This document shows, piece by piece, positions 3,278 to 28,466 of a stretch of DNA of 37,246 bases. Numbering within the stretch: the stretch's first letter is position 1; each line of letters begins with the position of its first letter. The notes below the pieces were generated by a model, which saw only the letters and a list, made by a program, of their open reading frames with translations, made no database searches and had not been told where the DNA came from. Position numbers and translations under genes: made by a program. Source of the DNA: a virus (taxonomy: Duplodnaviria > Caudoviricetes); IMG/VR virus record IMGVR_UViG_3300029145_000016, positions 1 to 37,246 of that record; one strand, given 5' to 3'.

Positions 3278-4228
3278 TTGGCATCTCCCAACGCTACGTT
3301 CACCGAAATGGTGACGACCACGCTGCGCAACCATCCGGGACAGGTCTACGACAATGTGTCGAACAACAACGCCCTGTTTGCCCGGCTGCGCCAGCGCGGC
3401 AAGATCAAGCGCATCAACGGCGGTTACGAAATCGTCCGCAACCTGGATTACGCCGAAAATTCGACGTTCCAGTGGTATGACGGCTATGAAACTCTGAATG
3501 TTGGCCAGTCCGACGTTCTGAGCGCCGCCAAGTACGACTGGAAGCAGGCTGCGGTCAATGTCGTCGCCTCCGGTAAGGAACTCCGCATGAACAACGGTCG
3601 CGAGCAGATCGTGGACCTTGCCGAAGCGCGCACTACCAACGCCATGCGCACCATGGCCAACCAGATTTCCAACGGCATCTACTCCGATGGTACGGGGTCC
3701 GATTCCAAGGAAATCGGCGGGCTGGATCTGCTGATTCAGACCGATGGCAATGGTGTTGTCGGCGGCATCGACGCCTCGTCCAATGCGTTCTGGGCTAACC
3801 AGTTCAAGGACGGGGGCACCATCACCACGACCAATATCAAGCAGAGCATGAATGAGCTTTGGCTGGATACGACCCGTGGTGCTGACAAGACGGACCTGAT
3901 CGTGTCGTCCAATGAAATCTTCAACACGTACTGGAACTCGCTGCAGGACCTGCAGCGGTACGCCAGCGCGGATGAAGGCGCCGCGGGCTTCACGTCGCTC
4001 AAGTTCGTCACTGCCGACGTGATCCACGATGGTGGGTCGGGCATCACGGCAAATCGCATGTTCTTCTTGAACACCGATTATCTCGAACTCGTGGTTCACC
4101 GCGACGCCGATATGACGGTTCAGGATGACAAGGTGTCGTTCAATCAGGATGCGGTCGCGATTCCGGTCCTGTTCATGGGGAATCTCTGCGTGTCCAACCG
4201 GGCGCGTCAGGGCGTTCTCTTCACCTGA
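3278..4228 (+). CDS. Major capsid protein (HK97 fold)
   Basis: GGAG RBS and TTG start; 316 aa. Motifs TTTLRN..DNVSNNNAL, YDGYETL, AAKYDWKQ, IYSDGTG, FFLNTDYL, SNRARQG. Confidence 0.9.
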   Translation: MASPNATFTEMVTTTLRNHPGQVYDNVSNNNALFARLRQRGKIKRINGGYEIVRNLDYAENSTFQWYDGYETLNVGQSDVLSAAKYDWKQAAVNVVASGKELRMNNGREQIVDLAEARTTNAMRTMANQISNGIYSDGTGSDSKEIGGLDLLIQTDGNGVVGGIDASSNAFWANQFKDGGTITTTNIKQSMNELWLDTTRGADKTDLIVSSNEIFNTYWNSLQDLQRYASADEGAAGFTSLKFVTADVIHDGGSGITANRMFFLNTDYLELVVHRDADMTVQDDKVSFNQDAVAIPVLFMGNLCVSNRARQGVLFT

Positions 4229-6877: not shown

Positions 6878-8444
6878 TGCGCTTGCCCGGCAGCGCCGGG
6901 GCGCAATCAGGACACAGCAGGCAGTGGGGGCAGCCGGGCCGCAGATCGTGCCCGCACCGGTCGGGGGTTTGAACGCCCGCGATTCAGAAGACAACATGAA
7001 CCCGCTCGATGCGTTGAAAATGGACAATTTCACGCCGGGGTTCGGGTCCGTCAACGTCCGCAAGGGCTATACGGCTTATGCAAGCGGGGTTGGGTCCGCG
7101 TCGTCATCGGTCCAGACCATCGCAACATTCATCAGCGGGGCCACGTCCAAGCTGATCGCGGCGGCGAATGGTTCGATTTTCGACATTACGTCCACCGGCA
7201 CGGCGTCCAGCCTTGCAAGCGGGTTTTCCGGCAACCGCTGGCAGACGGCGAATTTCAACGGCCTCATGGGGCTTGTGAACGGGACGGACACGCCGCAGCA
7301 GTTCAACGGAACAACGGTTTCAAGCCTGACGGTTTCCGGGTCCGGGCTTACGTCAACCGACCTGATCGGCATCACGGTGTTCAAGAATCGCTCCTACTTC
7401 TGGGAGGATGACAGTCAGGATTTCTGGTATTCGGCGCTTGATACGCTGGGAGCCGGGGTATCCAAGTTCCCGCTGTCGCGTGTCGGGGATTTTGGCGGCA
7501 AACTGGTTGCCATCAATTCGATGGCCCGTGATGGCGGTGATGGCCCGGACGACCTGTTCGTAGCCGTCATGTCGTCCGGGGACGTGATCGTCTATCAGGG
7601 CACTGATCCGAACTCGGCCTCAACGTGGCAGATCGTCGGTGTCTACAGGTCATCCCCTGCGGTGGATGTTCGGGCCGTGGTCAAGGTTGGCGGCGACCTC
7701 ATTCTGGTGACCCGGGCGGGCTATGTGTCCGTTGCGCAGTTGATGCAGTTCGGGTCCATCGCGAACATCGACCCGAACATCTCGTTCGGCTCGAAGATCA
7801 ACCCGCTCGCCCGTCAGAAGGTCGAGGACAACGCCGCAAATACAGGCTGGCAGGCCATTCTAGGCCCGGAATCCGAACTGCTGCTGTTCAACATCCCGAC
7901 CTCAAGCACGACGTTTGAACAGCACGTCTTCAACCTCGGAACGAAGGCGTGGGGCGTCTGGAAGGACATTCCGTCCTACTCATGGGGGAAGTTCAACGGG
8001 AAATACTATTTCGGCGGCCTTGGCGCGGTCTACCAGATCGGCGGCAATGACGACAACGGAACGGCGATCCAGGGGGATTGTCAGCAGGCGTTTTCCCAGC
8101 TTGGCGTTCAGGGCGTCCGCAAGATCATCACAGCCGTACAGCCCGCCTTGCGGGGGTCTGGCGACCTGGCCTTGCGCATCGGCGTCAATACCGACTTCGG
8201 GACGCAGCCGCCCGTAACCGTGCAAACGACATTCGGTGAACAGGGCACGTTCTGGGAAGACGAAGGCACATTCTGGGAAGATGCCGACCGGCTCTGGAAC
8301 GAGGGCGAAAACGGCATCATTGACGTCCTGACTTCTGCGGGCGGGCAGGGCTTCCGGATCGCCCCGCGCCTAATCGTGGACACAAGCAACGCCGTTGAGT
8401 GGCTATCAACGCGGATTATCTACAAGGCAGGGGGCGTGCGCTAA
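6867..8444 (+). CDS. Tail nozzle / DNA stabilisation protein (P22 gp10-like, beta-propeller)
   Basis: PAPVGGLNARD N-terminal motif, beta-rich ~525 aa, directly after the adaptor. Confidence 0.7.
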   Translation: MALDALARQRRGAIRTQQAVGAAGPQIVPAPVGGLNARDSEDNMNPLDALKMDNFTPGFGSVNVRKGYTAYASGVGSASSSVQTIATFISGATSKLIAAANGSIFDITSTGTASSLASGFSGNRWQTANFNGLMGLVNGTDTPQQFNGTTVSSLTVSGSGLTSTDLIGITVFKNRSYFWEDDSQDFWYSALDTLGAGVSKFPLSRVGDFGGKLVAINSMARDGGDGPDDLFVAVMSSGDVIVYQGTDPNSASTWQIVGVYRSSPAVDVRAVVKVGGDLILVTRAGYVSVAQLMQFGSIANIDPNISFGSKINPLARQKVEDNAANTGWQAILGPESELLLFNIPTSSTTFEQHVFNLGTKAWGVWKDIPSYSWGKFNGKYYFGGLGAVYQIGGNDDNGTAIQGDCQQAFSQLGVQGVRKIITAVQPALRGSGDLALRIGVNTDFGTQPPVTVQTTFGEQGTFWEDEGTFWEDADRLWNEGENGIIDVLTSAGGQGFRIAPRLIVDTSNAVEWLSTRIIYKAGGVR

Positions 8445-16501: not shown

Positions 16502-16792
16502 GTGCGCGTGAGGGCGTTCATTCTGGCGTTGATATTTCTGGCTGTCCCGGCAACTGCGGAGGCGGCGTGCGACCTCCGGGAAGCCATCCTGAAGAAGATG
16601 CTTCTCGGGTATAAGGAATTGCCATCCGCCCGGGGCATCACCGCGAACGGCAGTGTGATTGAGCTTCTTGTCAGCCCTGACGGCGAGACGTGGGCGATGA
16701 TGCAGTCATTGCCCAACGGCGTGTCGTGCATGATTGCCACTGGCGAAAGCTGGGAAGCCGTCGAACGCAAGGCCCCGGAGACGCCGTCGTGA
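16502..16792 (+). CDS. Secreted small protein (signal peptide, two Cys)
   Basis: Sec signal ...ATAEA; GETWAM...NGVSCMIATGESWE motif. Confidence 0.7.
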   Translation: MRVRAFILALIFLAVPATAEAACDLREAILKKMLLGYKELPSARGITANGSVIELLVSPDGETWAMMQSLPNGVSCMIATGESWEAVERKAPETPS

Positions 16793-16986
16793 GCGTTGAG
16801 ATAGGCCAGCTTCAAGCGGATGTTGCGCGTCTGAAATCGGACGTGGCGGCGCTTGAAAAAGAAAACCGCGAACTGCGGGCGCTTCTCAACAGGGGGCGCG
16901 GTGCTGTCTGGGTTCTGGGCCTCGGCGCGGGTCTGGCCACGTTCGCGTTGTCGCAATGGAGGCACATGGTGGATTTTCTCAAATGA
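16789..16986 (+). CDS. Coiled-coil plus TM protein (XhlA/holin-like)
   Basis: GTGA coupling; heptad repeat followed by a C-terminal hydrophobic segment; lysis region. Confidence 0.6.
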   Translation: MSVEIGQLQADVARLKSDVAALEKENRELRALLNRGRGAVWVLGLGAGLATFALSQWRHMVDFLK

Positions 16987-17429
16987 GCGGGCGTGTTCAC
17001 GGGACGATGACGGCTCTGTTCGCTGGCGGCGTTGGCGTTGTCGCCGCGCTGGCCATGTCGATGGTGCTGGATGTGCGGCGCGAGATCAAAGGGCCGCCGC
17101 CGTGTAGCGTCGTCCATAAGGCTTACGTTGAGGCTGTCATCCACGACTATTGGACTCACAGCATTGTTGCGGACGTCGAACGGCTGGACAGAGATTGTTC
17201 ACCGCCTGGCGTTGTGATTAACACGCGCATTCGCGGCGTCGTTTCTGAACTTCGTGAATCCGGCCACGGTCGCGGCGTTCTGGTTGCAAAGGAGGCGGGC
17301 ATCGTCCGCATCGCGATCCCCGTCCGCCTTCCCAAGCACGCGACGCACGTCGAAAGCCAGGCGCATTACATCGACATCGACGGAAGCGCCCGCCCCATCA
17401 CCACAACAGGGTTTTTGAAGCTGCCATGA
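16983..17429 (+). CDS. Membrane-anchored protein (N-terminal TM), lysis region
   Basis: ATGA-coupled at both ends; hydrophobic N-terminus. Confidence 0.6.
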   Translation: MSGRVHGTMTALFAGGVGVVAALAMSMVLDVRREIKGPPPCSVVHKAYVEAVIHDYWTHSIVADVERLDRDCSPPGVVINTRIRGVVSELRESGHGRGVLVAKEAGIVRIAIPVRLPKHATHVESQAHYIDIDGSARPITTTGFLKLP

Positions 17430-17809
17430 TTGACTGGTCCCGATACCCCAACTTCACCGAGGCCGAGTTTCGCTGCAAAGGAACGCACTGTTGCGGTGGC
17501 GAGGCGAAAATGCAGGAAGACTTTCTTGACCGGCTGCAACAGCTACGTTCCCGCGTCGGCTTCCCCTTCCAGATCACGTCAGGCTATCGCTGCCCGGACC
17601 ACAACGCGGCGGTATCCCGGACAGGCCGTGCAGGCCCGCACACGACAGGGCAGGCGGTGGACATAGCCGTCAACGGCCCGCAGCGGTTCGAGATCATGGC
17701 GGAGTTTGCGAAGTTCGGCTTTACGGGCGTCGGCATTGCGAAAACCTTCATCCATCTTGACACGCTGGCGGCGGACGAAGCCCCGCGCCCGACGAGTTGG
17801 ACGTACTAG
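17426..17809 (+). CDS. Endolysin, peptidase M15 family
   Basis: EFRCK..CCG, ITSGYRCPDHN, HTTGQAVDI, FIHLD zinc-peptidase motifs. Confidence 0.92.
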   Translation: MIDWSRYPNFTEAEFRCKGTHCCGGEAKMQEDFLDRLQQLRSRVGFPFQITSGYRCPDHNAAVSRTGRAGPHTTGQAVDIAVNGPQRFEIMAEFAKFGFTGVGIAKTFIHLDTLAADEAPRPTSWTY

Positions 17810-19156: not shown

Positions 19157-19420
19157 TTAAGCCTTGAGTGCGCGATATTCCGTGAGAGTTAGGTTGGCTT
19201 TCTTGTTGTTGCATTCCCAGCAGGCGGCGCGGCGGTTTTCAGACACGTCCCGACCTCCGAGGGCAAGCGGGTACACATGGTCAATGGTTGGTGTGTTGCG
19301 CCGTCCGTGCTGTATTTCCATTTCGCGATTGCAGAGATAGCAGCGGCCCTGCTGCTTCTTGAACAGCCGAACCATTTCCGGCTTCCGCTTCTTTTGCCGT
19401 TTCCGGCGCAATGAACTCAT
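19157..19420 (-). CDS. HNH endonuclease (short, McrA-like)
   Basis: QGRCYLC...TIDHVYPLALGG....N...ACWECNNKK. Confidence 0.9.
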   Translation of the reverse strand: MSSLRRKRQKKRKPEMVRLFKKQQGRCYLCNREMEIQHGRRNTPTIDHVYPLALGGRDVSENRRAACWECNNKKANLTLTEYRALKA

Positions 19421-19589: not shown

Positions 19590-19617
19590 ATTATAGCACG
19601 AAGGGCGGCGCTATCAA
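19590..19617 (-). promoter_or_regulatory. Sigma70-like promoter reading toward the HNH gene
   Basis: TTGATA-N16-TATAAT with a TGn extended -10 (TGCTATAAT). Confidence 0.6.
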
Positions 19618-20450: not shown

Positions 20451-20742
20451 CCAGCCTCTCCTTCAGGTGGTCGATCATGGCGGTAGCAGCAGCCCGCATA
20501 GGTGCGTGGTCCATGGGCGCATCGTTGGTGTCTGCCTGGCCCCAATAGGCGTCCAGCATACGCTCAACCATGGCGGCGTCGGTCGTGTCGATCCCGTCCA
20601 GCACGGCGCGGATGGCGGCGGCAGCTTCGTACCGCTTCTTTTTCGGAGCCTCGCATTCCGCGCCGCAATGCTCACTCCAGCACACACCACTTGGGCAGCA
20701 GATCGCCCGCGCCACAGCCTCCGTCAGCTTCTCAACGTCCAT
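20443..20742 (-). CDS. Hypothetical early protein
   Basis: AGGAG RBS; EAVARAIC...AAIRA...T.AMV motif. Confidence 0.7.
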   Translation of the reverse strand: MDVEKLTEAVARAICCPSGVCWSEHCGAECEAPKKKRYEAAAAIRAVLDGIDTTDAAMVERMLDAYWGQADTNDAPMDHAPMRAAATAMIDHLKERLDD

Positions 20743-20902
20743 CGTCGCGCTCCTTGTGTTCGCCGCACCAGTTGTGGTCTTCGACTTGTGGGAATTGGAA
20801 ACTTTCTGTTGCAAGGAATCCCGTTGTCCCGACGAATACAGGTGGGTAACGGCGGCATTGGCTCGCGAATTTGAACCGGCATGTCTTACACGTTGCGCGC
20901 AC
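20732..20902 (-). CDS. Small Cys-rich protein (CxxC...CRRYPP...WCGEH)
   Basis: Recurrent phage Cys motif; GTG start with a GGAGG RBS. Confidence 0.65.
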   Translation of the reverse strand: MRATCKTCRFKFASQCRRYPPVFVGTTGFLATESFQFPQVEDHNWCGEHKERDDGR

Positions 20903-21152
20903 GGTTCCGTCCCTCCTTTGTGATGCAGTAGCCCGCCCCGCCAACAGTTCCGTCATCGTGCCAAAGTCCCTTGTGGTACTCAGACAAACCGAGCCGTGCC
21001 AGAAAGCGCACTCGTCGTCGCACTTCCTGCCTACTGAAGCCTGTTTCCAAGGTCAGGAGAGCGAAAGAAACACAAGGCTCCGCGTCTGGATTTGTGTTCG
21101 CATCCAGCGCCGTCAGAACAGTCATGTTTTCAGGCGATAACTGCCTCATCAC
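20886..21152 (-). CDS. Winged-helix-like protein
   Basis: ETGFSRQEVRRRVRFLARLGL...GYCITKEG. Confidence 0.65.
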   Translation of the reverse strand: MMRQLSPENMTVLTALDANTNPDAEPCVSFALLTLETGFSRQEVRRRVRFLARLGLSEYHKGLWHDDGTVGGAGYCITKEGRNRARNV

Positions 21153-21183
21153 TCCCTCCAGTCCAGAGCGTCATAGCGGCCTG

Positions 21184-21366
21184 TCATGCGGCCACCTTTT
21201 CACTGAAGATTTTAACCCGCCCGCAGCGGTCGCAGCGCTGCATCCACGAGTATTTTATCGCGTAAGGCCGTTTGCTGCCGTCAGTTTCGTACAAGGACGC
21301 CTTGTGCAGACTCGTAACGTCGCCCCACTGATGAACCCCCAAAAAGCACTTGAGCCAGCCCATCAC
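21184..21366 (-). CDS. Small hypothetical protein (C..G.H.W...CxxC)
   Basis: KCFLGVHQW and QRCDRCG; coupled to the upstream stop. Confidence 0.65.
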   Translation of the reverse strand: MMGWLKCFLGVHQWGDVTSLHKASLYETDGSKRPYAIKYSWMQRCDRCGRVKIFSEKVAA

Positions 21367-21701
21367 CCCTCTCCCCTTGCCTTGGCGAGCGCGGCGCGGT
21401 TGTTCCCACGCATGATCCCGATACGGGCCAGAAGTTCGTCCCTACCGGCGTTGTCCTTGATCGCCAGTTCGAGCAGGTCCAGGTCAACGCATTCGGCTTC
21501 CAGTTGGCCAGCCAGTTCAGGGGCAGCCGCGATCAGGTGGGCATCCGCTTCGCGCCGGTACGATGGCGGTAACTGACAAACCTCCGGATTGTGTATCAGG
21601 ACTGCCCCACCTGTAGCGGTGGTGTGGGTTATCGGTTGACCTACAACCACTGCGCACAGTTTGGACCGCATTTTCCAAGGCCCCGGCGTCCAGTCACTCA
21701 T
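21363..21701 (-). CDS. Phage early protein with TPGPW...LIAAAPEL motif
   Basis: TPGPW, ADAHLIAAAPEL, AALAKARGE. Confidence 0.8.
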   Translation of the reverse strand: MSDWTPGPWKMRSKLCAVVVGQPITHTTATGGAVLIHNPEVCQLPPSYRREADAHLIAAAPELAGQLEAECVDLDLLELAIKDNAGRDELLARIGIMRGNNRAALAKARGEG

Positions 21702-21940
21702 GCTTCTTCTCCTTCAGGGGGTGGGGGCAGGGGCATCCAGTGGGTGGGGTGGTCTGTCATCAGACGGCGCGATGCCAAGTCCATCCAACCCCATTCGTCA
21801 GCCAACGTTGGACCCCAGAAGCCGAACAGCATCCCAGACTTCTCGACACCTTCACCAGGGGCGACGTACAAAAGCAGGATGATGGCTTTGTCCTTGCCCC
21901 TCGGCGCGTTCTCCATGTCGCTGCGCCATTCAGTCATCAC
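21698..21940 (-). CDS. DUF551-like protein
   Basis: EW...ENAPRG and PTHWMPLPPPP. Confidence 0.8.
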   Translation of the reverse strand: MMTEWRSDMENAPRGKDKAIILLLYVAPGEGVEKSGMLFGFWGPTLADEWGWMDLASRRLMTDHPTHWMPLPPPPEGEEA

Positions 21941-22062
21941 TTCTCTCCATAGTTAACCCACTTCAGGTACAGGTGGCCGCATCTCGGGCATCCATCAGGC
22001 GGTGGGTTCGCTTTCTGGCTCCACGCATGGGAACAGCGCAGGCAGCGGAAACGGGCGGTCAC
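21937..22062 (-). CDS. 41-aa zinc-ribbon protein MTARFRCLRCSHAWSQKANPPPDGCPRCGHLYLKWVNYGEK
   Basis: Read manually. GTG overlaps the stop of the capsid-like gene, GAGG upstream, CxxC-x14-CxxC, and its stop overlaps the next start. Confidence 0.7.
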   Translation of the reverse strand: MTARFRCLRCSHAWSQKANPPPDGCPRCGHLYLKWVNYGEK

Positions 22063-22844
22063 GCCTCTTCACAGGGCATTGTCACCAACCCAAGCGGGTC
22101 GATGGTTACGGCACCTTGCGCCATGTAGTTGTTGATGAAGTGGGCGGCGCGCTCGCCGACCCAGGTGATGTCGCTGGCGACGTCCTTGCCGATGGCGTGG
22201 CCGATGGCGGTGCGGTGATACCAGTGGCAGAGCCGCTTGGACGAGCCGTCCACGGTCAGCCCCGAATGCGGGAACCAAAGCGTGCCCAGCCAGCGCTTGG
22301 CCTGCGTCGACTTCCACGGCAGCTGGTCCGGCCCGACATAGTCGGCGTTGGCGAACTCGGGGATGTCGAGGAGGTCCGACCACTGCTTCCAGCCGATGAC
22401 GGCAAAGCGCTCGCCATCGTCGGGCGCATCGGTCTCGCCCAGGATCTCGAGCGCCTCCAGCACCTTGGCCTTGGTCAGGCCGCCGGTGGTGGTCGCGGTC
22501 AGGTTGGTGGACTTGTCCATCTCGGCGATGATCAGGTCGTCGGTCTTGCGGCCCAGCACGTAGGCCCTGGCGTTCGCCTGGATCTGGCGCTCGTCCGAGT
22601 TGGTCTTGAACTCGTCCAGCTTGTCCACCCAGTCGCCGGCGTAGAAGTCCTTCAGGAAGCACTCCACGGCCTCGTGGGTGACGTTCATGGTGGATGCGAC
22701 ACCATTGCCGACCTTGTGGAAGACGGTCGACGCGCCCTTGATGTTGTTCTGCGTCCGCACGGTATTGCGCAGCTTCGTGCCCTGCCGCTGGTAGGCGTTG
22801 TGGACCGAGGCCGCATATTCTCGGCAGAAGTTTTCATCTTTCAC
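22059..22844 (-). CDS. Second capsid-like protein (T7-type podovirus capsid family), unrelated to the MCP at 3278
   Basis: VHNAYQRQGTKLRNTVR, DFYAGDWVDKLDEFKTN.DER, AYVLGRKTDDLII, QWSDLLDIPEFANADYVG, WYHRTAIGHA, GAVTID; AGGAG RBS 8 nt upstream. Confidence 0.85.
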   Translation of the reverse strand: MKDENFCREYAASVHNAYQRQGTKLRNTVRTQNNIKGASTVFHKVGNGVASTMNVTHEAVECFLKDFYAGDWVDKLDEFKTNSDERQIQANARAYVLGRKTDDLIIAEMDKSTNLTATTTGGLTKAKVLEALEILGETDAPDDGERFAVIGWKQWSDLLDIPEFANADYVGPDQLPWKSTQAKRWLGTLWFPHSGLTVDGSSKRLCHWYHRTAIGHAIGKDVASDITWVGERAAHFINNYMAQGAVTIDPLGLVTMPCEEA

Positions 22845-22855
22845 CTGCTTCTCTC

Positions 22856-23086
22856 CTATTCAGACAAAGGGGTGGGGAATAGGTCGCCCATGGCCTTGCG
22901 GTTCCGTCGCGTCTGAGCCGCGTTCTTCCTTCGCATAGGAGCGTCGTGCCGGTTGTGGCATCGCTGGCATAGCGCTGCCAGATTGTCGTCTGCGCAGTTG
23001 GCAGGGTCTGGGTCGTGCAGATACTCCCATTGCCACGCCACCGCCGCGTCGATCACGGCCTGCTGCTCGGGGGTTAGGTTGGTCAT
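22856..23086 (-). CDS. Chimeric protein carrying only the C-terminal half of an HNH domain
   Basis: HDPDPANCADDNLAALCQRCHNRHD is present, but the N-terminal CxxC is absent. Confidence 0.6.
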   Translation of the reverse strand: MTNLTPEQQAVIDAAVAWQWEYLHDPDPANCADDNLAALCQRCHNRHDAPMRRKNAAQTRRNRKAMGDLFPTPLSE

Positions 23087-23376
23087 TGGGACACCTTCGC
23101 CTTCATCATATCCAGCGCGTCGAACATGGCCCCCATCCTCTTCGTCAGAACAGCGAAGTCGGCTTTTGTCATATGGTCGGGGATGGTTCTGAAGCCGCGC
23201 ATGTGGGCTGGCATCTTCTGTTCAGCTTCAATCTCTTTGCGGCCCTTTTCACTGGCCTCGTTGTAAGCAAAGCCAATCCATGACTGGCCATCTGTGTTCA
23301 TGGTGATCCTGATCATCCGGATCTGGTCTTCACAAACGAACTGATCTTCCAGATGAAACTTCGTGTCGATTTTCAC
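23083..23376 (-). CDS. Hypothetical early protein
   Basis: Coupled at both ends; GGAGG RBS. Confidence 0.65.
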   Translation of the reverse strand: MKIDTKFHLEDQFVCEDQIRMIRITMNTDGQSWIGFAYNEASEKGRKEIEAEQKMPAHMRGFRTIPDHMTKADFAVLTKRMGAMFDALDMMKAKVSQ

Positions 23377-23438
23377 TCGCCCGCCTCCCGTGCTTTGAGC
23401 ATGGCGTCGGCAGGCCCACCGTCTTTCACGTCAGCCAT
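23373..23438 (-). pseudogene. 21-aa remnant MADVKDGGPADAMLKAREAGE of the common phage GGPAFP...ADAML.AR family
   Basis: Read manually. N- and C-terminal family motifs abut directly; GGAGG RBS; stop overlaps the next GTG. Confidence 0.6.
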
Positions 23439-23439
23439 A

Positions 23440-23928
23440 TCACCGGCCCTCCGGTTCCAGAACGGCGGTTGGGGGCCTGAGGGTATCAGGCACAGGTCCG
23501 AGCCATTCAGCGCACAGCGCCATCAACCGTGCCTCACGGTTCGGCCCGTCTTCATCGCCATCCGCGTATTCGTCGAAGTAGGATTCGATTTCGGTCAGAA
23601 TGTCTTCCGCAGCACGTTCGCGCTTTTTCAGACGGGCGTTGTCGGATCGGAGGCCGTCGCGTTCTTCCGCCAGCACGATGTTGGCTTCCTTCACGTACCG
23701 GTATTGCGTGGCAATATCGTTGTAGGCTTCGGTGGCGGCACGATCCCGCGTGATTGACTCTCGCCGATCCGCCTTGGCTTTCTCCAAGTCGGCGAGTAGC
23801 CGTTCGATTTCGTCGTCAACCTCATGGATCGCTTGCCGGGAAACGGTCACCATGACCCCATCCATGTCCGCCGGCTGATAATCCATCAGCGCTTCATGTG
23901 CTGGGCTTCTTTCAACAATGTCAGTCAT
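23440..23928 (-). CDS. Hypothetical coiled-coil early protein
   Basis: MTDIVER start, DEIERL motif; ATGA coupling. Confidence 0.7.
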   Translation of the reverse strand: MTDIVERSPAHEALMDYQPADMDGVMVTVSRQAIHEVDDEIERLLADLEKAKADRRESITRDRAATEAYNDIATQYRYVKEANIVLAEERDGLRSDNARLKKRERAAEDILTEIESYFDEYADGDEDGPNREARLMALCAEWLGPVPDTLRPPTAVLEPEGR

Positions 23929-24311
23929 TGCGCTATCTCCTCGTATTCAGGGGCAGGAAGCACGATCCCGCATTCGTTCGCTGCCCAGCGGTCCACCGCT
24001 TCCATGTACTGGGCCATTTCTGCGACCGTCTTTTCCTTCGTTGACCAGCGTTCAACAATCTGGCCTCGGAACTGTTCGACAATCGGCACGCTCAACGCTT
24101 TCTGAAGCACTTCATGAACCGTTGCCGGGGTTGACCCTTCATGCCTGGCGATAATGCCGATCCACTTCCAATAAAGCCGGTTCTGCCGGAGTGACCGCGT
24201 GTCCTTTAGCGGCCCGATGGTCACGGCTGTCGGCTTGTCCAGAGGCAGGCAAGCAATGCGCTCGGCAATGCGCGCGCGGCTGGCTTCGTCTCGGATGATC
24301 AAGTCAGCCAT
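23925..24311 (-). CDS. ninB: NinB/Orf-family recombination protein
   Basis: RSLRQNRLYWKW...ST....AEMAQYMEAVDRWAA..GIVLP. Confidence 0.8.
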   Translation of the reverse strand: MADLIIRDEASRARIAERIACLPLDKPTAVTIGPLKDTRSLRQNRLYWKWIGIIARHEGSTPATVHEVLQKALSVPIVEQFRGQIVERWSTKEKTVAEMAQYMEAVDRWAANECGIVLPAPEYEEIAQ

Positions 24312-24570
24312 TGCGCATCCGATCTTCCACGGCGTCCAAGGCGGCCTTCAGCGTAGTGTTGAACGCAGCGCGGTGTGTCTTGATCGCCAGAATCTTGTTA
24401 CCGTCACGAATGTGGCCGTCGATCTGGTGCCAGGCTTCGGCGTCTGGGTCATCGACCATCACCGCGCGAACGAATGTTGCCGGGGCGATCTGTGCGACGT
24501 TGAAGGCGATGTTCTTCCAGTCCCGTTCGGACTTCAGAAGTTCAATTGCACGCTTGTAACTGTCAGCCAT
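24304..24570 (-). CDS. Protein with a ribosomal L7/L12 C-terminal-like motif
   Basis: GNKILAIKTHRAAFNTTLKAALDAVE resembles the bL12 CTD pattern KI.AIK..R..TG..LKEAKD.VE. Confidence 0.55.
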   Translation of the reverse strand: MADSYKRAIELLKSERDWKNIAFNVAQIAPATFVRAVMVDDPDAEAWHQIDGHIRDGNKILAIKTHRAAFNTTLKAALDAVEDRMRNG

Positions 24571-24904
24571 TCTTCCATGCCTCATATCTCTCACGGGCCA
24601 GCGCCCGGAATGCGTCTCTCAGAAGGTCGTCAGGTGCTTCACGGCGGAGCATTGAAATCTCCCCGGTCTGGTGGCCACCCGTGTGCAGGTCCGCGCGACA
24701 CGGCAGGGCTTCATCGTCTGTCTTCTTGCCCTTGCCGTGCGTGCCGATGTGCATGGGGACGACTGAAAGATATTCAGTGCCTTCGTCCCCGGTCAGGATG
24801 CAGGGCTGTGTCCGTAGCCATTTCAGGTACTTCGGATCATCGACAGCCATACGGACGCCGAACGCCAGCGCAGCCTTGTTTATGGGTGGGCCGGTGCGGT
24901 TCAT
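24563..24904 (-). CDS. DUF968-like putative HNH nuclease
   Basis: KYLKWLRTQPC...H...GKGKKTDD..LPC...H...H. Confidence 0.7.
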   Translation of the reverse strand: MNRTGPPINKAALAFGVRMAVDDPKYLKWLRTQPCILTGDEGTEYLSVVPMHIGTHGKGKKTDDEALPCRADLHTGGHQTGEISMLRREAPDDLLRDAFRALARERYEAWKNG

Positions 24905-25362
24905 CAGAACGGGAAGTTTTCGCCGTCGCCAACATCCGGACTGGCCCTGTCAAAGCCTTCGCCCCGGCTGTGGTCTGCGTACCCGCCGGATGTATTGGAC
25001 GCGCCGTCCTGCTTGCCGTCCAGCATCTGCAACTCGCCGCGATACCGCTGCAACACGATCTCGGTGGTGTAGCGTTCCTGGCCGTTGTTGTCGGTCCACT
25101 TGCGGGTCGCGATCTGGCCTTCGATGTAGACCTTGGATCCCTTGCGCAGATACTCTTCTGCGACCTTGGCCAGATGCTCGTTGAAGATGACGACGCGGTG
25201 AAATTCAGCCCGTTCCCGGCGTTCCCCGCTGTTGCGATCCTTCCACGTCTCGTTCGTGGCGAGCCTCAGATTGATGACAGGTGACCCGTCATTCATACGC
25301 CTGCACTCTGGATCCTGCGTCAGGTTCCCGATGAGAAGCACACGATTAAGCGAACCGGCCAT
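24904..25362 (-). CDS. ssb: Single-stranded DNA-binding protein
   Basis: MAGSLNRVLLIGNL.QDPE, EFHRVVIFNE, YLRKGSKVYIEGQ, acidic tail ending in PF. Confidence 0.97.
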   Translation of the reverse strand: MAGSLNRVLLIGNLTQDPECRRMNDGSPVINLRLATNETWKDRNSGERRERAEFHRVVIFNEHLAKVAEEYLRKGSKVYIEGQIATRKWTDNNGQERYTTEIVLQRYRGELQMLDGKQDGASNTSGGYADHSRGEGFDRASPDVGDGENFPF

Positions 25363-25876
25363 TTGCTTTCCTTTCACGTTCCCGCCCTGCAAGGGCATCT
25401 TCAAATCTGTGCAGCCGCGTGTGTCCGCTGCGGGTCACAAGCGCCAAGTTGTTTTCGTCGTTGTTGGTGCGGTCGCCGTCGATGTGATGAACGCACTCAT
25501 CAGGGCGAAGCGACCGCCCTAGCCGGGCTTCCATGGTGACGGCATGGACGGTCTTGCCTTTGTTGGGGCCGCGTGTGATTTCAAGGTAGCCATTAGGCTT
25601 GAGGGATGTGCCCTTGGCGTTCTTGTCGCCCCACGCCCTCCTGCCTTTGCTGATATTTTCACACCACTCAGGGGTAAATTTCCGCTTACGGCCCTTGCCC
25701 TTGCTCAACCGGCCCTTTCGTGCTGCGATCTTCATGCTCTCAGAACGAGTCCGTAGAATGCCCAAGCGCTTGAACCTGTGCCGCAGCGTTGATCTGGCGA
25801 TCCCCGTCATTTCAGCAATCTCGGGGATACTGTGCCCTTCGATATACAGCCGGGCCTCTGGCGGCACGTCGCTCAT
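25346..25876 (-). CDS. HNH homing endonuclease with N-terminal HTH
   Basis: SIPEIAEMTGIARSTL HTH; MEARLGRSL...ECVHHIDGDRTNN...NL; sits between the annealing gene and ssb. Confidence 0.85.
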   Translation of the reverse strand: MSDVPPEARLYIEGHSIPEIAEMTGIARSTLRHRFKRLGILRTRSESMKIAARKGRLSKGKGRKRKFTPEWCENISKGRRAWGDKNAKGTSLKPNGYLEITRGPNKGKTVHAVTMEARLGRSLRPDECVHHIDGDRTNNDENNLALVTRSGHTRLHRFEDALAGRERERKANGRFA

Positions 25877-26532
25877 GCCGGAACCTTCCTTTCGAGTGCT
25901 TCTTTCAGCTTGTCTTTCAGATCTGAGACCATGCCGCCCTGTGCTTTGGACAGCGCCTTGAATGCGTCGTGGGTGCAGATGTTCTTCCACTGGTCCCGGA
26001 GCCGCCCGAGTGCGACCGTGGCGTCTGCATCAGACATGCGCTGGGCCTCTGTCGTGTCGCGCACACCAACCGCGCTCAGAAGGTCGCGCTGCATGGCCAT
26101 GACGTCATCGTTCGGGGTGTCCGTGGACGCTGGCTGATCGCCGGGCTTGAATTCGTCCGCCTCATCTTCCGAGTAGACCAAGCCCTGCAAGCCGATCAGC
26201 TTCAGAATCACGCGGTCCTTCGCGCGCTTCTCAGCCATCGCGAACGGGTACGCAGGCTGCTTGCCCTTCACGGTGTAGTTCTGGTTGATGACGGCCTCGC
26301 CAATCGACCATTCGGAACGGTCACCGAGACTGCCCTTGACCAGAATTGCGGCGGCGGACTTCTCAGCGACAAGAACCTGGGGCGTGTCGTAAGCGATGCC
26401 GGTTTTCGCCGCGATCTGTTCCAGAACCCGGTGATAAACCACCCAGGTCCCGTGGCAGTCCCAAACCGCGTTGCGGTCGAACCCATGCGCTTTCAGTGTA
26501 TCCGCGATTGCGGGGTCAAGCTGTCGGGGCAT
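25873..26532 (-). CDS. Putative single-strand annealing/recombination protein (Sak/Rad52-like)
   Basis: YPFAMAEKRAKDRVILKLIGL.GLVYSEDEADEF motif; located upstream of ssb. Confidence 0.6.
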   Translation of the reverse strand: MPRQLDPAIADTLKAHGFDRNAVWDCHGTWVVYHRVLEQIAAKTGIAYDTPQVLVAEKSAAAILVKGSLGDRSEWSIGEAVINQNYTVKGKQPAYPFAMAEKRAKDRVILKLIGLQGLVYSEDEADEFKPGDQPASTDTPNDDVMAMQRDLLSAVGVRDTTEAQRMSDADATVALGRLRDQWKNICTHDAFKALSKAQGGMVSDLKDKLKEALERKVPA

Positions 26533-28036: not shown

Positions 28037-28092
28037 GGTACAATAAGTACCTTATCGCGGCAGGTCAACACAAAAATGGTACTTTTGGTACT
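28037..28092 (-). promoter_or_regulatory. PL promoter with two operators
   Basis: Minus strand TTGACC (28068-28063)-N17-TATTGT (28045-28040). Operators GGTAC-AATAA-GTACC (28037-28051) and GGTAC-TTTTG-GTACT (28078-28092). Confidence 0.8.
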
Positions 28093-28389
28093 TTAGAACA
28101 GATAAAGTTCCAGCGGCGGGAAAATCCGATGCACGGTTTCGACGGCGCAGGGCGGGTCCCATGGGCCTTCGGGATTGTACTGACCAAACCGCCAGCCGCG
28201 CCCTTGGCGTCCAGTGATGACCTTCAGGGCGTCCGCCAGCTTGGCAAGTGTGTTGCCGCGCGGGTTGTCCACCTCTCCACGGGAATACCGTTGCAGGGCT
28301 TCACGGGTCACGCCCGTCCGCCGTGCCAGTTCAGCGCGTGACAGATCGGCGTCCTTCCGGGCCTTTTCCAATCGCTCCCACCATTCCAT
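28093..28389 (-). CDS. cI: CI-like repressor (XRE HTH), short, with only a remnant of the C-terminal domain
   Basis: ERLEKARKDADLSRAELARRTGVTREALQRYSRGEVDNPRGNTLAKLADALKV HTH; divergent from cro and flanked by operators; 98 aa. Confidence 0.85.
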   Translation of the reverse strand: MEWWERLEKARKDADLSRAELARRTGVTREALQRYSRGEVDNPRGNTLAKLADALKVITGRQGRGWRFGQYNPEGPWDPPCAVETVHRIFPPLELYLF

Positions 28390-28436: not shown

Positions 28437-28466
28437 TTGCAAATGGTACTTTGAGTACCTTATTGT
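28437..28466 (+). promoter_or_regulatory. PR promoter with operator
   Basis: TTGCAA-N18-TATTGT; operator GGTAC-TTTGA-GTACC (28445-28459) lies in the spacer. Confidence 0.75.

Follow-up and report, generated by a model that had tools for sequence, protein, structure and literature searches.

The accessible part of PMC5052747 describes Ccm of SaPIbov5 as an HK97-fold capsid homologue that interferes with the capsid assembly of another element, and presents it as a full-length, satellite-encoded protein, about 19% identical to its target, which forms no shells by itself and diverts heads to the packaging of the satellite. The protein analyzed here is likewise an HK97-fold homologue of another element's capsid (92% identical to the host-type protein P0132). 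Ccm is its nearest counterpart in proposed mode of action, and yet it is no member of the Ccm type: it is encoded by a self-sufficient phage, is clipped in the E-loop and is 92% identical to the host gene, and interference is in its case a proposal only. Helper-embedded satellites, along with other elements integrating in prophage late genes, are the subject of the accessible part of PMC10111431; the present locus shares with them a late gene as recurrent recombination target, and differs from them in that the phage lacks an integrase and carries a whole gene in an accessory slot. Sequence family and fold are shared with the major capsid proteins of PF19821/phrog_3437, including that of LME-1 (9EG4). 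By contrast to these, the present protein lacks the E-loop tip, is changed at invariant residues of the spine helix and has no portal, scaffold or tail genes as neighbours; it descends from PF19821 rather than serving as a functional member of that family. Fv1 and enJS56A1 are trans-dominant restriction factors of endogenous retroviral Gag origin, encoded by the host and acting against viruses. The likeness consists in a defective capsid-type subunit that blocks assembly or trafficking of an intact relative; unlike in those cases, a virus would here wield the subunit against a domesticated host particle. A phage-encoded trimmed capsid acting on a GTA-like particle was not found in the literature searched, which comprised few subscription papers and no supplements, and nothing in it matched a capsid decoy, an E-loop dominant-negative or an anti-GTA phage protein.

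The window, i.e. the whole stretch of DNA that was analyzed, is a virus record of 37,246 nt, 98% complete. Its two ends are contiguous in the related phage L167, so that little of the phage genome is missing. Genes for portal, capsid, tail, lysis and terminase functions lie on the plus strand, and a run of small genes proceeds leftward on the minus strand from about 28040 to 19157. With portal, capsid, terminase and tail genes of its own, the phage is not satellite-like. The features needed to place the locus in this genome are the following:

3278..4228, plus strand: major capsid protein of the phage itself, within a full head module (NF033394, phrog_9953)
23925..26532, minus strand: recombination genes of the leftward run (NinB/Orf, SSB and a candidate Sak/Rad52-like gene)
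28040..28068, minus strand: PL-like promoter candidate, a consensus site beside operator-like repeats and an HTH repressor gene

The profile matches of the resident capsid confirmed the claim, made in an initial annotation, that the genome has a complete head module with its own capsid gene. NinB/Orf and SSB are encoded at 23925-24311 and 24904-25404, respectively. Next to SSB, positions 25873-26532 encode an unannotated 219-aa protein for which Sak and Rad52-like came out nearest among the named atlas clusters (0.90-0.91, with a low family share), a weak lead towards a candidate annealing protein of that kind. Operator-like repeats were located at 28074-28095 and 28441-28462, near the PL-like candidate. 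Promoter-like sites in the window numbered 3, against 2.3 expected by chance, and early, PL-driven expression of the leftward run is inferred from its layout, i.e. the site at 28040-28068, the operator-like repeats and the HTH repressor. The CI-like repressor (28093-28386) has just 97 aa, consisting of an HTH and a short tail with no peptidase domain detected. Integrase profiles PF00589 and PF00239 matched none of five records including the window, and the controls were positive in 14/14 and 12/14 genomes. Without an integrase, this may be a phage that does not integrate, or one derived towards a lytic life. Another near-consensus promoter (19590-19617, minus strand, 11/12 with TG) precedes an HNH gene at 19157-19420, and four HNH genes or remnants are present in the phage genome.

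The gene under study and the features around and within it, all on the minus strand, are:

22059..22844, minus strand: gene for an E-loop-trimmed capsid protein of 261 aa (PF19821), derived from a chromosomal module of Minwuia
21937..22062, minus strand: 41-aa zinc-ribbon ORF (CxxC-x14-CxxC), with diverged copies in sister phages that lack the capsid gene
22850..22876, minus strand: slot leader with AGGAG (22853-22857), common to sister phages with other DNA in the slot
22856..23086, minus strand: remnant of an HNH endonuclease gene, immediately upstream of the slot (phrog_1571, C-terminal part only)
22797..22844, minus strand: diverged 5' patch, codons 1-16, with a shortened N-arm
22137..22796, minus strand: host-like core, codons 17-236, with a GC3 of 0.95; close to a host-type contig of run X13
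22059..22136, minus strand: diverged 3' patch, codons 237-261, with the protein kept at 17/25 residues; begins at the FINN site
22688..22693, minus strand: surviving copy of a 6-nt direct repeat at a 27-nt deletion, with three further changes at most 16 nt away

The 261-aa ORF starts with GTG, 8 nt from the AGGAG, and its stop overlaps the GTG of the zinc-ribbon ORF. It was matched by the PF19821 profile over residues 5-260 (221 bits, cut-off 25) and by phrog_3437 (E 8e-51), and its predicted structure (pLDDT 73, pTM 0.75) has the HK97 fold, with the capsid of podophage LME-1 (9EG4) as best Foldseek match (E 3.4e-13, TM 0.68). The separate, intact capsid ORF on the opposite strand with its own ribosome-binding site was thus correctly recognized from the letters. 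The further assignment to a T7-type capsid held for the fold, T7 being a fold relative only, and gave way to LME-1 as the nearest solved structure. The non-structural setting was supported as well: the ORF is surrounded by small accessory ORFs and has no portal or scaffold neighbours, as against 225 of 228 related loci that adjoin module genes. Foreign origin was supported by the match to P0132, which is of Minwuia type, and by the lack of relation to the resident capsid, which belongs to a different family and shows no pairwise similarity (best E 0.14). Runs X1, X2 and X3 belong to one study, and the window may itself stem from X1. A contig of X1 (21370-22830) and two of X2 (21370-22224 and 22198-24500) are identical to the window, with 0 differences, and a contig of X3 spans the deletion. 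Since the X1 and X2 contigs bridge both gene edges, the gene is not a chimeric assembly. Steps in read depth at 22198 and 22801 had been considered as signs of other alleles; this was dropped, as primer-like loose ends and very uneven depth make amplification edges likelier.

The nearest proteins are 273-aa capsids, named as Minwuia or clustered with such, at 84-92% identity; the phage copy and the Minwuia gene agree at 92% in protein and at 96% in DNA over the core. On sequence grounds, the gene derives from a capsid gene on the chromosome of Minwuia, a marine bacterium, where it is part of a domesticated podovirus-like module. Modules of this Rhodospirillales type are candidate GTAs, and in the chromosomal copies examined the capsid gene has its full length and stands between head and tail genes. 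Of the relatives of one Minwuia genome, the first 12 listed had one intact copy each, 17/41 genomes were matched overall, and pairs of host orthologues showed dN/dS of 0.07-0.18. The donor module is thus chromosomal, single-copy and under purifying selection, features that count among the criteria for GTAs. Portal genes were found in 5/5 and terminase genes in 3/5 Minwuia genomes, and tail-fibre and lysis genes lie nearby in one. In Minwuia, the genes of the module lie in separate capsid-tail, portal, fibre-lysis and terminase pieces, each intact and up to megabases from one another (L070, L071, L074, L259-L263, L266-L268). In other Alphaproteobacteria, the capsid gene stands in a repressor-portal-scaffold-capsid-tail-terminase block, and PF19821, mostly as a single copy, was found in 54/201 genomes of the class. 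Genuine decay also occurs in the family: L370 carries at 7400-8300 an orphan, frameshifted chromosomal capsid remnant with no module neighbours. PMC9254644, in its accessible part, deals with RcGTA-type genes, the accessible part of 10.1101/2024.11.20.624540 holds nothing on the identity of the donor-module family, neither text takes up whether the donor is BaGTA or RcGTA, and no account of DNA packaging or transfer by particles of the donor module was found in the literature searched.

Three lysis-region genes of the phage match the Minwuia module at 42-60%. Genes for a 96-aa protein, a 98-aa protein and an endolysin have the same order in the window (16502-17809) and in L070 (1381-2700). This likeness possibly reflects further exchange between phage and host module. 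From the capsid gene and the three distant lysis-region matches, Minwuia is likely to be the host of the phage. Related prophages were absent from the first 12 Minwuia genomes, and a single 48% match was obtained in 21.

The host-type contig of run X13 holds the 27 nt missing from the phage gene, flanked by two copies of the 6-nt repeat, which points to deletion by microhomology. The nine residues lost correspond to host positions 56-64 and lie, in a model of the host protein, in the long hairpin before the spine helix (96-121); this model superimposes on 9EG4 with a fold Z of 19.8 and an rmsd of 3.2 over 239 residues. By HK97 topology, we take the lost residues to be the tip of the E-loop. 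In the HK97 fold, this tip clasps neighbouring subunits. The E-loop of the phage protein spans 45 residues between anchors, as compared to 53-58 when complete. An in-frame loss of about 9 aa at 22688/22689, in the predicted E-loop tip, had been proposed by the initial annotation and was found by comparison with homologues; the gap was shared by none of the 227 related loci that cover the segment. Also as proposed, the N-terminus is shortened, by 3 aa relative to homologues, and NAGAYALG reads NARAYVLG; the latter corresponds to G93R and A96V, at columns 100% conserved in 124 homologues. Further core substitutions are K47N, A49V, F132L and V140A.

The reading we favour, tentatively and with not quite even confidence, is that the 261-aa protein is a dominant-negative subunit that jams assembly of the host's particle. 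The trimmed protein would be made early, from the leftward operon. Having kept A-domain, P-domain and spine helix, it would still be taken up by host subunits, scaffold or portal; lacking the E-loop tip, it would fail to clasp the next subunit, so that the growing shell would be capped or distorted. The phage would gain by stopping a co-induced host particle, with terminase, portal and lysis genes of its own, from cutting or packaging phage DNA or from using up resources. In its favour count the single, conserved host copy with portal and terminase genes in the same genomes, the place of the lost residues in the hairpin before the spine helix, the precedent of Ccm and the relatives trimmed at the same loop. 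Among the points against it, in-frame deletions are simply best tolerated in the E-loop, and G93R, located in the spine helix, could wreck folding. Poisoning of a competing phage or resident element had been suggested at the outset; the present data narrow the target to the resident domesticated module of the host, given the 92% identity. Free podophages of the same capsid family would be another target, since free phages use PF19821 capsids (55 records) and related prophages occur in some Alphaproteobacteria; those capsids are less than 60% identical to the phage protein, as against 92% for the host module. A minor component of the phage's own head would be a further role, at variance with the position of the gene in the leftward run and with a resident capsid of another family. 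Taken together, action on free podophages or in the own head seems highly improbable.

The kept A-domain also bears on a decoy function, the second suggestion of the initial annotation. A capsid fold that does not oligomerize might bind a fold-reading immune sensor without activating it, and so shield the real capsid of the phage. In its accessible part, bioRxiv 10.64898/2026.01.04.697583 reports that Avs7 binds the HK97 fold mainly via the A-domain, which the trimmed set retains, with surface contacts to P-domain and E-loop, and the accessible part of an editorial (PMC13728456) states that capsid triggers shared only the need for oligomerization. The idea is weakened because the protein mimics a host self protein and not the resident capsid; moreover, known sensors are activated by the capsid they bind, so that early expression should trigger them. 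We consider a decoy quite unlikely.

How the gene came to its position can be read from its mosaic structure. The core differs from the X13 host-type contig at 26/684 nt (22122-22805), whereas the 30 nt past each end of this match hold 16 and 18 differences, counted by hand (p 3e-26); at the 5' side, codons 4-13 and the closest host allele disagree at 16/30 nt. The diverged ends, which are closest to the Minwuia clade, keep 25-26 of 39 residues, against 15-19 under neutral change (p<=0.001), a result in favour of the assembly poison. Their excess of silent changes depends on the parameters used, with p ranging from <0.001 to 0.2. Low GC3 of the ends was considered as a sign of long residence in phage; it is a weak one, since one Minwuia genome shows similar codon use. 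The 3' join falls at codons 237-242, and 7/307 loci with room for it are broken directly after the corresponding F/L-I/V-N-N site; six of the seven share the isoleucine of the window and one lies beside an integrase. Broken after F-I/V-N-N are the chromosomal copies L370, L375, L378, L138, L148, L123 and L245. In L378 a tyrosine integrase follows the break, and L350, an intact copy, is followed after 329 nt by a serine integrase. In L123, L148 and L245 the frame continues into sequence that we take to resemble the C-terminus of a tail fibre. No element bearing the diverged 3' tail of the phage gene was found. The diverged ends, together with a 3' join at a hot spot, indicate that an older copy, or an att-type tail, occupied the slot until the core was renewed with host sequence. 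With the assembly poison, capture would likely have been aided by the recombination hot spot near the 3' end of the gene, and the phage recombination proteins would refresh the core from the host copy.

The same data could be explained at the level of DNA, with the gene consisting of captured host DNA joined to a replacement tail of att type, or serving as a homology cassette for recombination between an integrase-less phage and the chromosome. The join at a site broken in 7/307 chromosomal or contig copies, six with the isoleucine of the window, the recently host-like core and the absence of an integrase from the genome are in line with this, and the accessible part of PMC3945230 offers a precedent in phages that capture genes from defective prophages by relaxed recombination. 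Such a role would account for the mosaic and not for E-loop-specific losses or for relatives whose divergence precludes recombination; divergence also marks the 5' end, and no integrase adjoins the gene. We regard it as very unlikely.

The trimmed gene occupies an exchangeable slot with a phage ribosome-binding site, the 261-aa ORF fitting exactly between this site and the next start. In the sister phages of X1 and X2, the leader (22850-22876) is followed by 231 other letters and then by a diverged zinc-ribbon copy, and in another sister phage 1283 letters replace both the capsid and the zinc-ribbon genes. Co-occurring sister phages swap single genes over 20590-22876 at several boundaries that share short RBS-like repeats. 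Five records of related phages, including a nearly complete one, are without the capsid gene, which argues against the assembly poison. Coupling of the capsid gene to the zinc ribbon, as initially proposed, is real as regards the overlap of stop and start and is not specific: in sister phages the slot holds different DNA ahead of the zinc ribbon, and a dedicated partnership is not supported. The zinc ribbon is a neighbour in an exchangeable gene run. In the putative frame of the sister-phage copy, which is 7 nt shorter, silent changes were read by hand near the second CxxC (P26, R27, Y32). No homologues of the zinc ribbon were found.

Selection on the phage copy was assessed from changes polarized with three outgroups; 23/26 core differences were classed from a table, and V237I was inferred from the protein. 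The phage branch accumulated 7 amino-acid and 5-8 silent changes, versus 0 and 9-12 in the host branch (Fisher p 0.005-0.02). Omega of the phage branch was 0.26-0.42, with p for neutrality of 0.011 or 0.12, i.e. rejected under one polarization only. Core changes were clustered, 7/11 being at most 10 nt from another (p 0.03) and three adjoining the deletion, as would be expected of old patches that were retained. By itself, the copy in the window could be decaying.

This leads to the alternative of a relaxed passenger, gained by hot-spot recombination and drifting, with the E-loop loss kept because it makes a misplaced capsid harmless. Amino-acid changes of the core hit columns at least 90% conserved at about the chance rate (5/7, expected 52%), and among 116 highly conserved columns the protein deviates at 11, where the median is 1. 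A deletion by microhomology, a lack of stops that is not significant in this copy (p 0.24-0.6) and sister phages that manage without the gene point in the same direction. Divergence of the ends under protein constraint and the exact fit of the ORF between slot ribosome-binding site and next start speak against a passenger, as do 17 relatives that remain open, with the core kept, at 35-54% identity to chromosomal copies. On balance we hold a passenger to be unlikely.

These relatives came from a search of 1.84 billion cluster representatives, in which the best 150 of 1195 matches were used and 124 of these 150 cover both E-loop anchors. The E-loop span among them was bimodal, with 53-58 aa in 107/124, 20-47 aa in 17/124 and none at 48-52. 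Deletions in the 17 representatives ranged from 7 to 34 residues and, with the window, 15 different lengths occurred among 18 trimmed proteins. Of the residues lost by these 18, 339/399 were in the E-loop, centred on R58-H59-G60 (gone in 17/18), whereas F176, W197, C218, Q255 and C270 were retained in all 18. A clade signature of eight residues, picked after viewing the alignment, was present at 7 or more positions in 16 trimmed proteins (window included) and 5 others, versus 2 trimmed and 90 others in the rest of the best 150 of 1195. In a rapidly built tree of the sequence C-terminal to the E-loop, all 18 nested in the chromosomal-module clade; tip lengths were 0.46-1.82 for the 17 and 0.03-0.27 for chromosomal copies, and parsimony gave 7 changes, with 3 forced. 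In a smaller tree, a single origin of 15 older trimmed proteins was not rejected (support 65), which is a point against the assembly poison. The copy in the window is a separate, younger trimming event.

Being open over 230-300 codons at 35-54% identity to chromosomal kin, the trimmed relatives are not plain pseudogenes, and having diverged so far while acquiring no stop codons they point to selection on the trimmed form. Newly found are 17 intact, fast-evolving E-loop-trimmed derivatives of the chromosomal-module clade, among 124 of the best 150 of 1195 matches. The question whether other copies share the loss and stay intact is thereby answered in the affirmative for 17 distant proteins, phage context being known for the window's copy only; as to purifying selection on orphan copies, the 17 stay intact, and the data on the window's copy are compatible with relaxed decay. 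The trimmed relatives belong to small clusters whose contigs do not exceed 44.6 kb, with 0/17 over 45 kb versus 30/120 full-length clusters, a weak contrast since small clusters have fewer contigs. P0278, P0170 and P0272 are divergent proteins of this clade whose E-loop is almost complete or which show losses of another kind, and they may be intermediates of the trimmed class.

No trimmed copy was present in bacterial genomes among the matches listed (HMM searches of 401 genomes, with 104 matches beyond those listed and 40 genomes re-queried, and of 127 genomes, the latter counting one unpublished genome on which no claim depends). In 30 chromosomal regions, the E-loop was full in 95/96 covered loci, the exception being frameshifted, and a spacing pattern covering part of the deletion sizes gave, in 351 and 301 genomes, 26 matches, all non-capsid. 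Among the accessible records, other phage-borne copies were not found by protein scans of viral and metagenome contigs or in phage and plasmid collections; DNA patterns gave one chance match and then 0, and a region search gave 3 host proteins. The broader claim that phages of Alphaproteobacteria repeatedly captured their hosts' domesticated capsid gene and clipped its E-loop, turning it into an assembly poison of the GTA-like particle, is put forward as a doubtful proposal, somewhat unlikely as it stands.

If the phage antagonist is true, it would be the first sign of a phage-versus-GTA conflict at particle assembly, and it would turn around the common pattern of phage heads being sabotaged by satellites or hosts. 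A further consequence would be that a widespread host module harms or competes with infecting phages, PF19821 being carried by about a quarter of the Alphaproteobacteria sampled (54/201). The 18 natural E-loop deletions would map those HK97 contacts that are dispensable for folding yet needed for shell growth, and the trimmed protein would be a natural inhibitor for asking what the host particle does.
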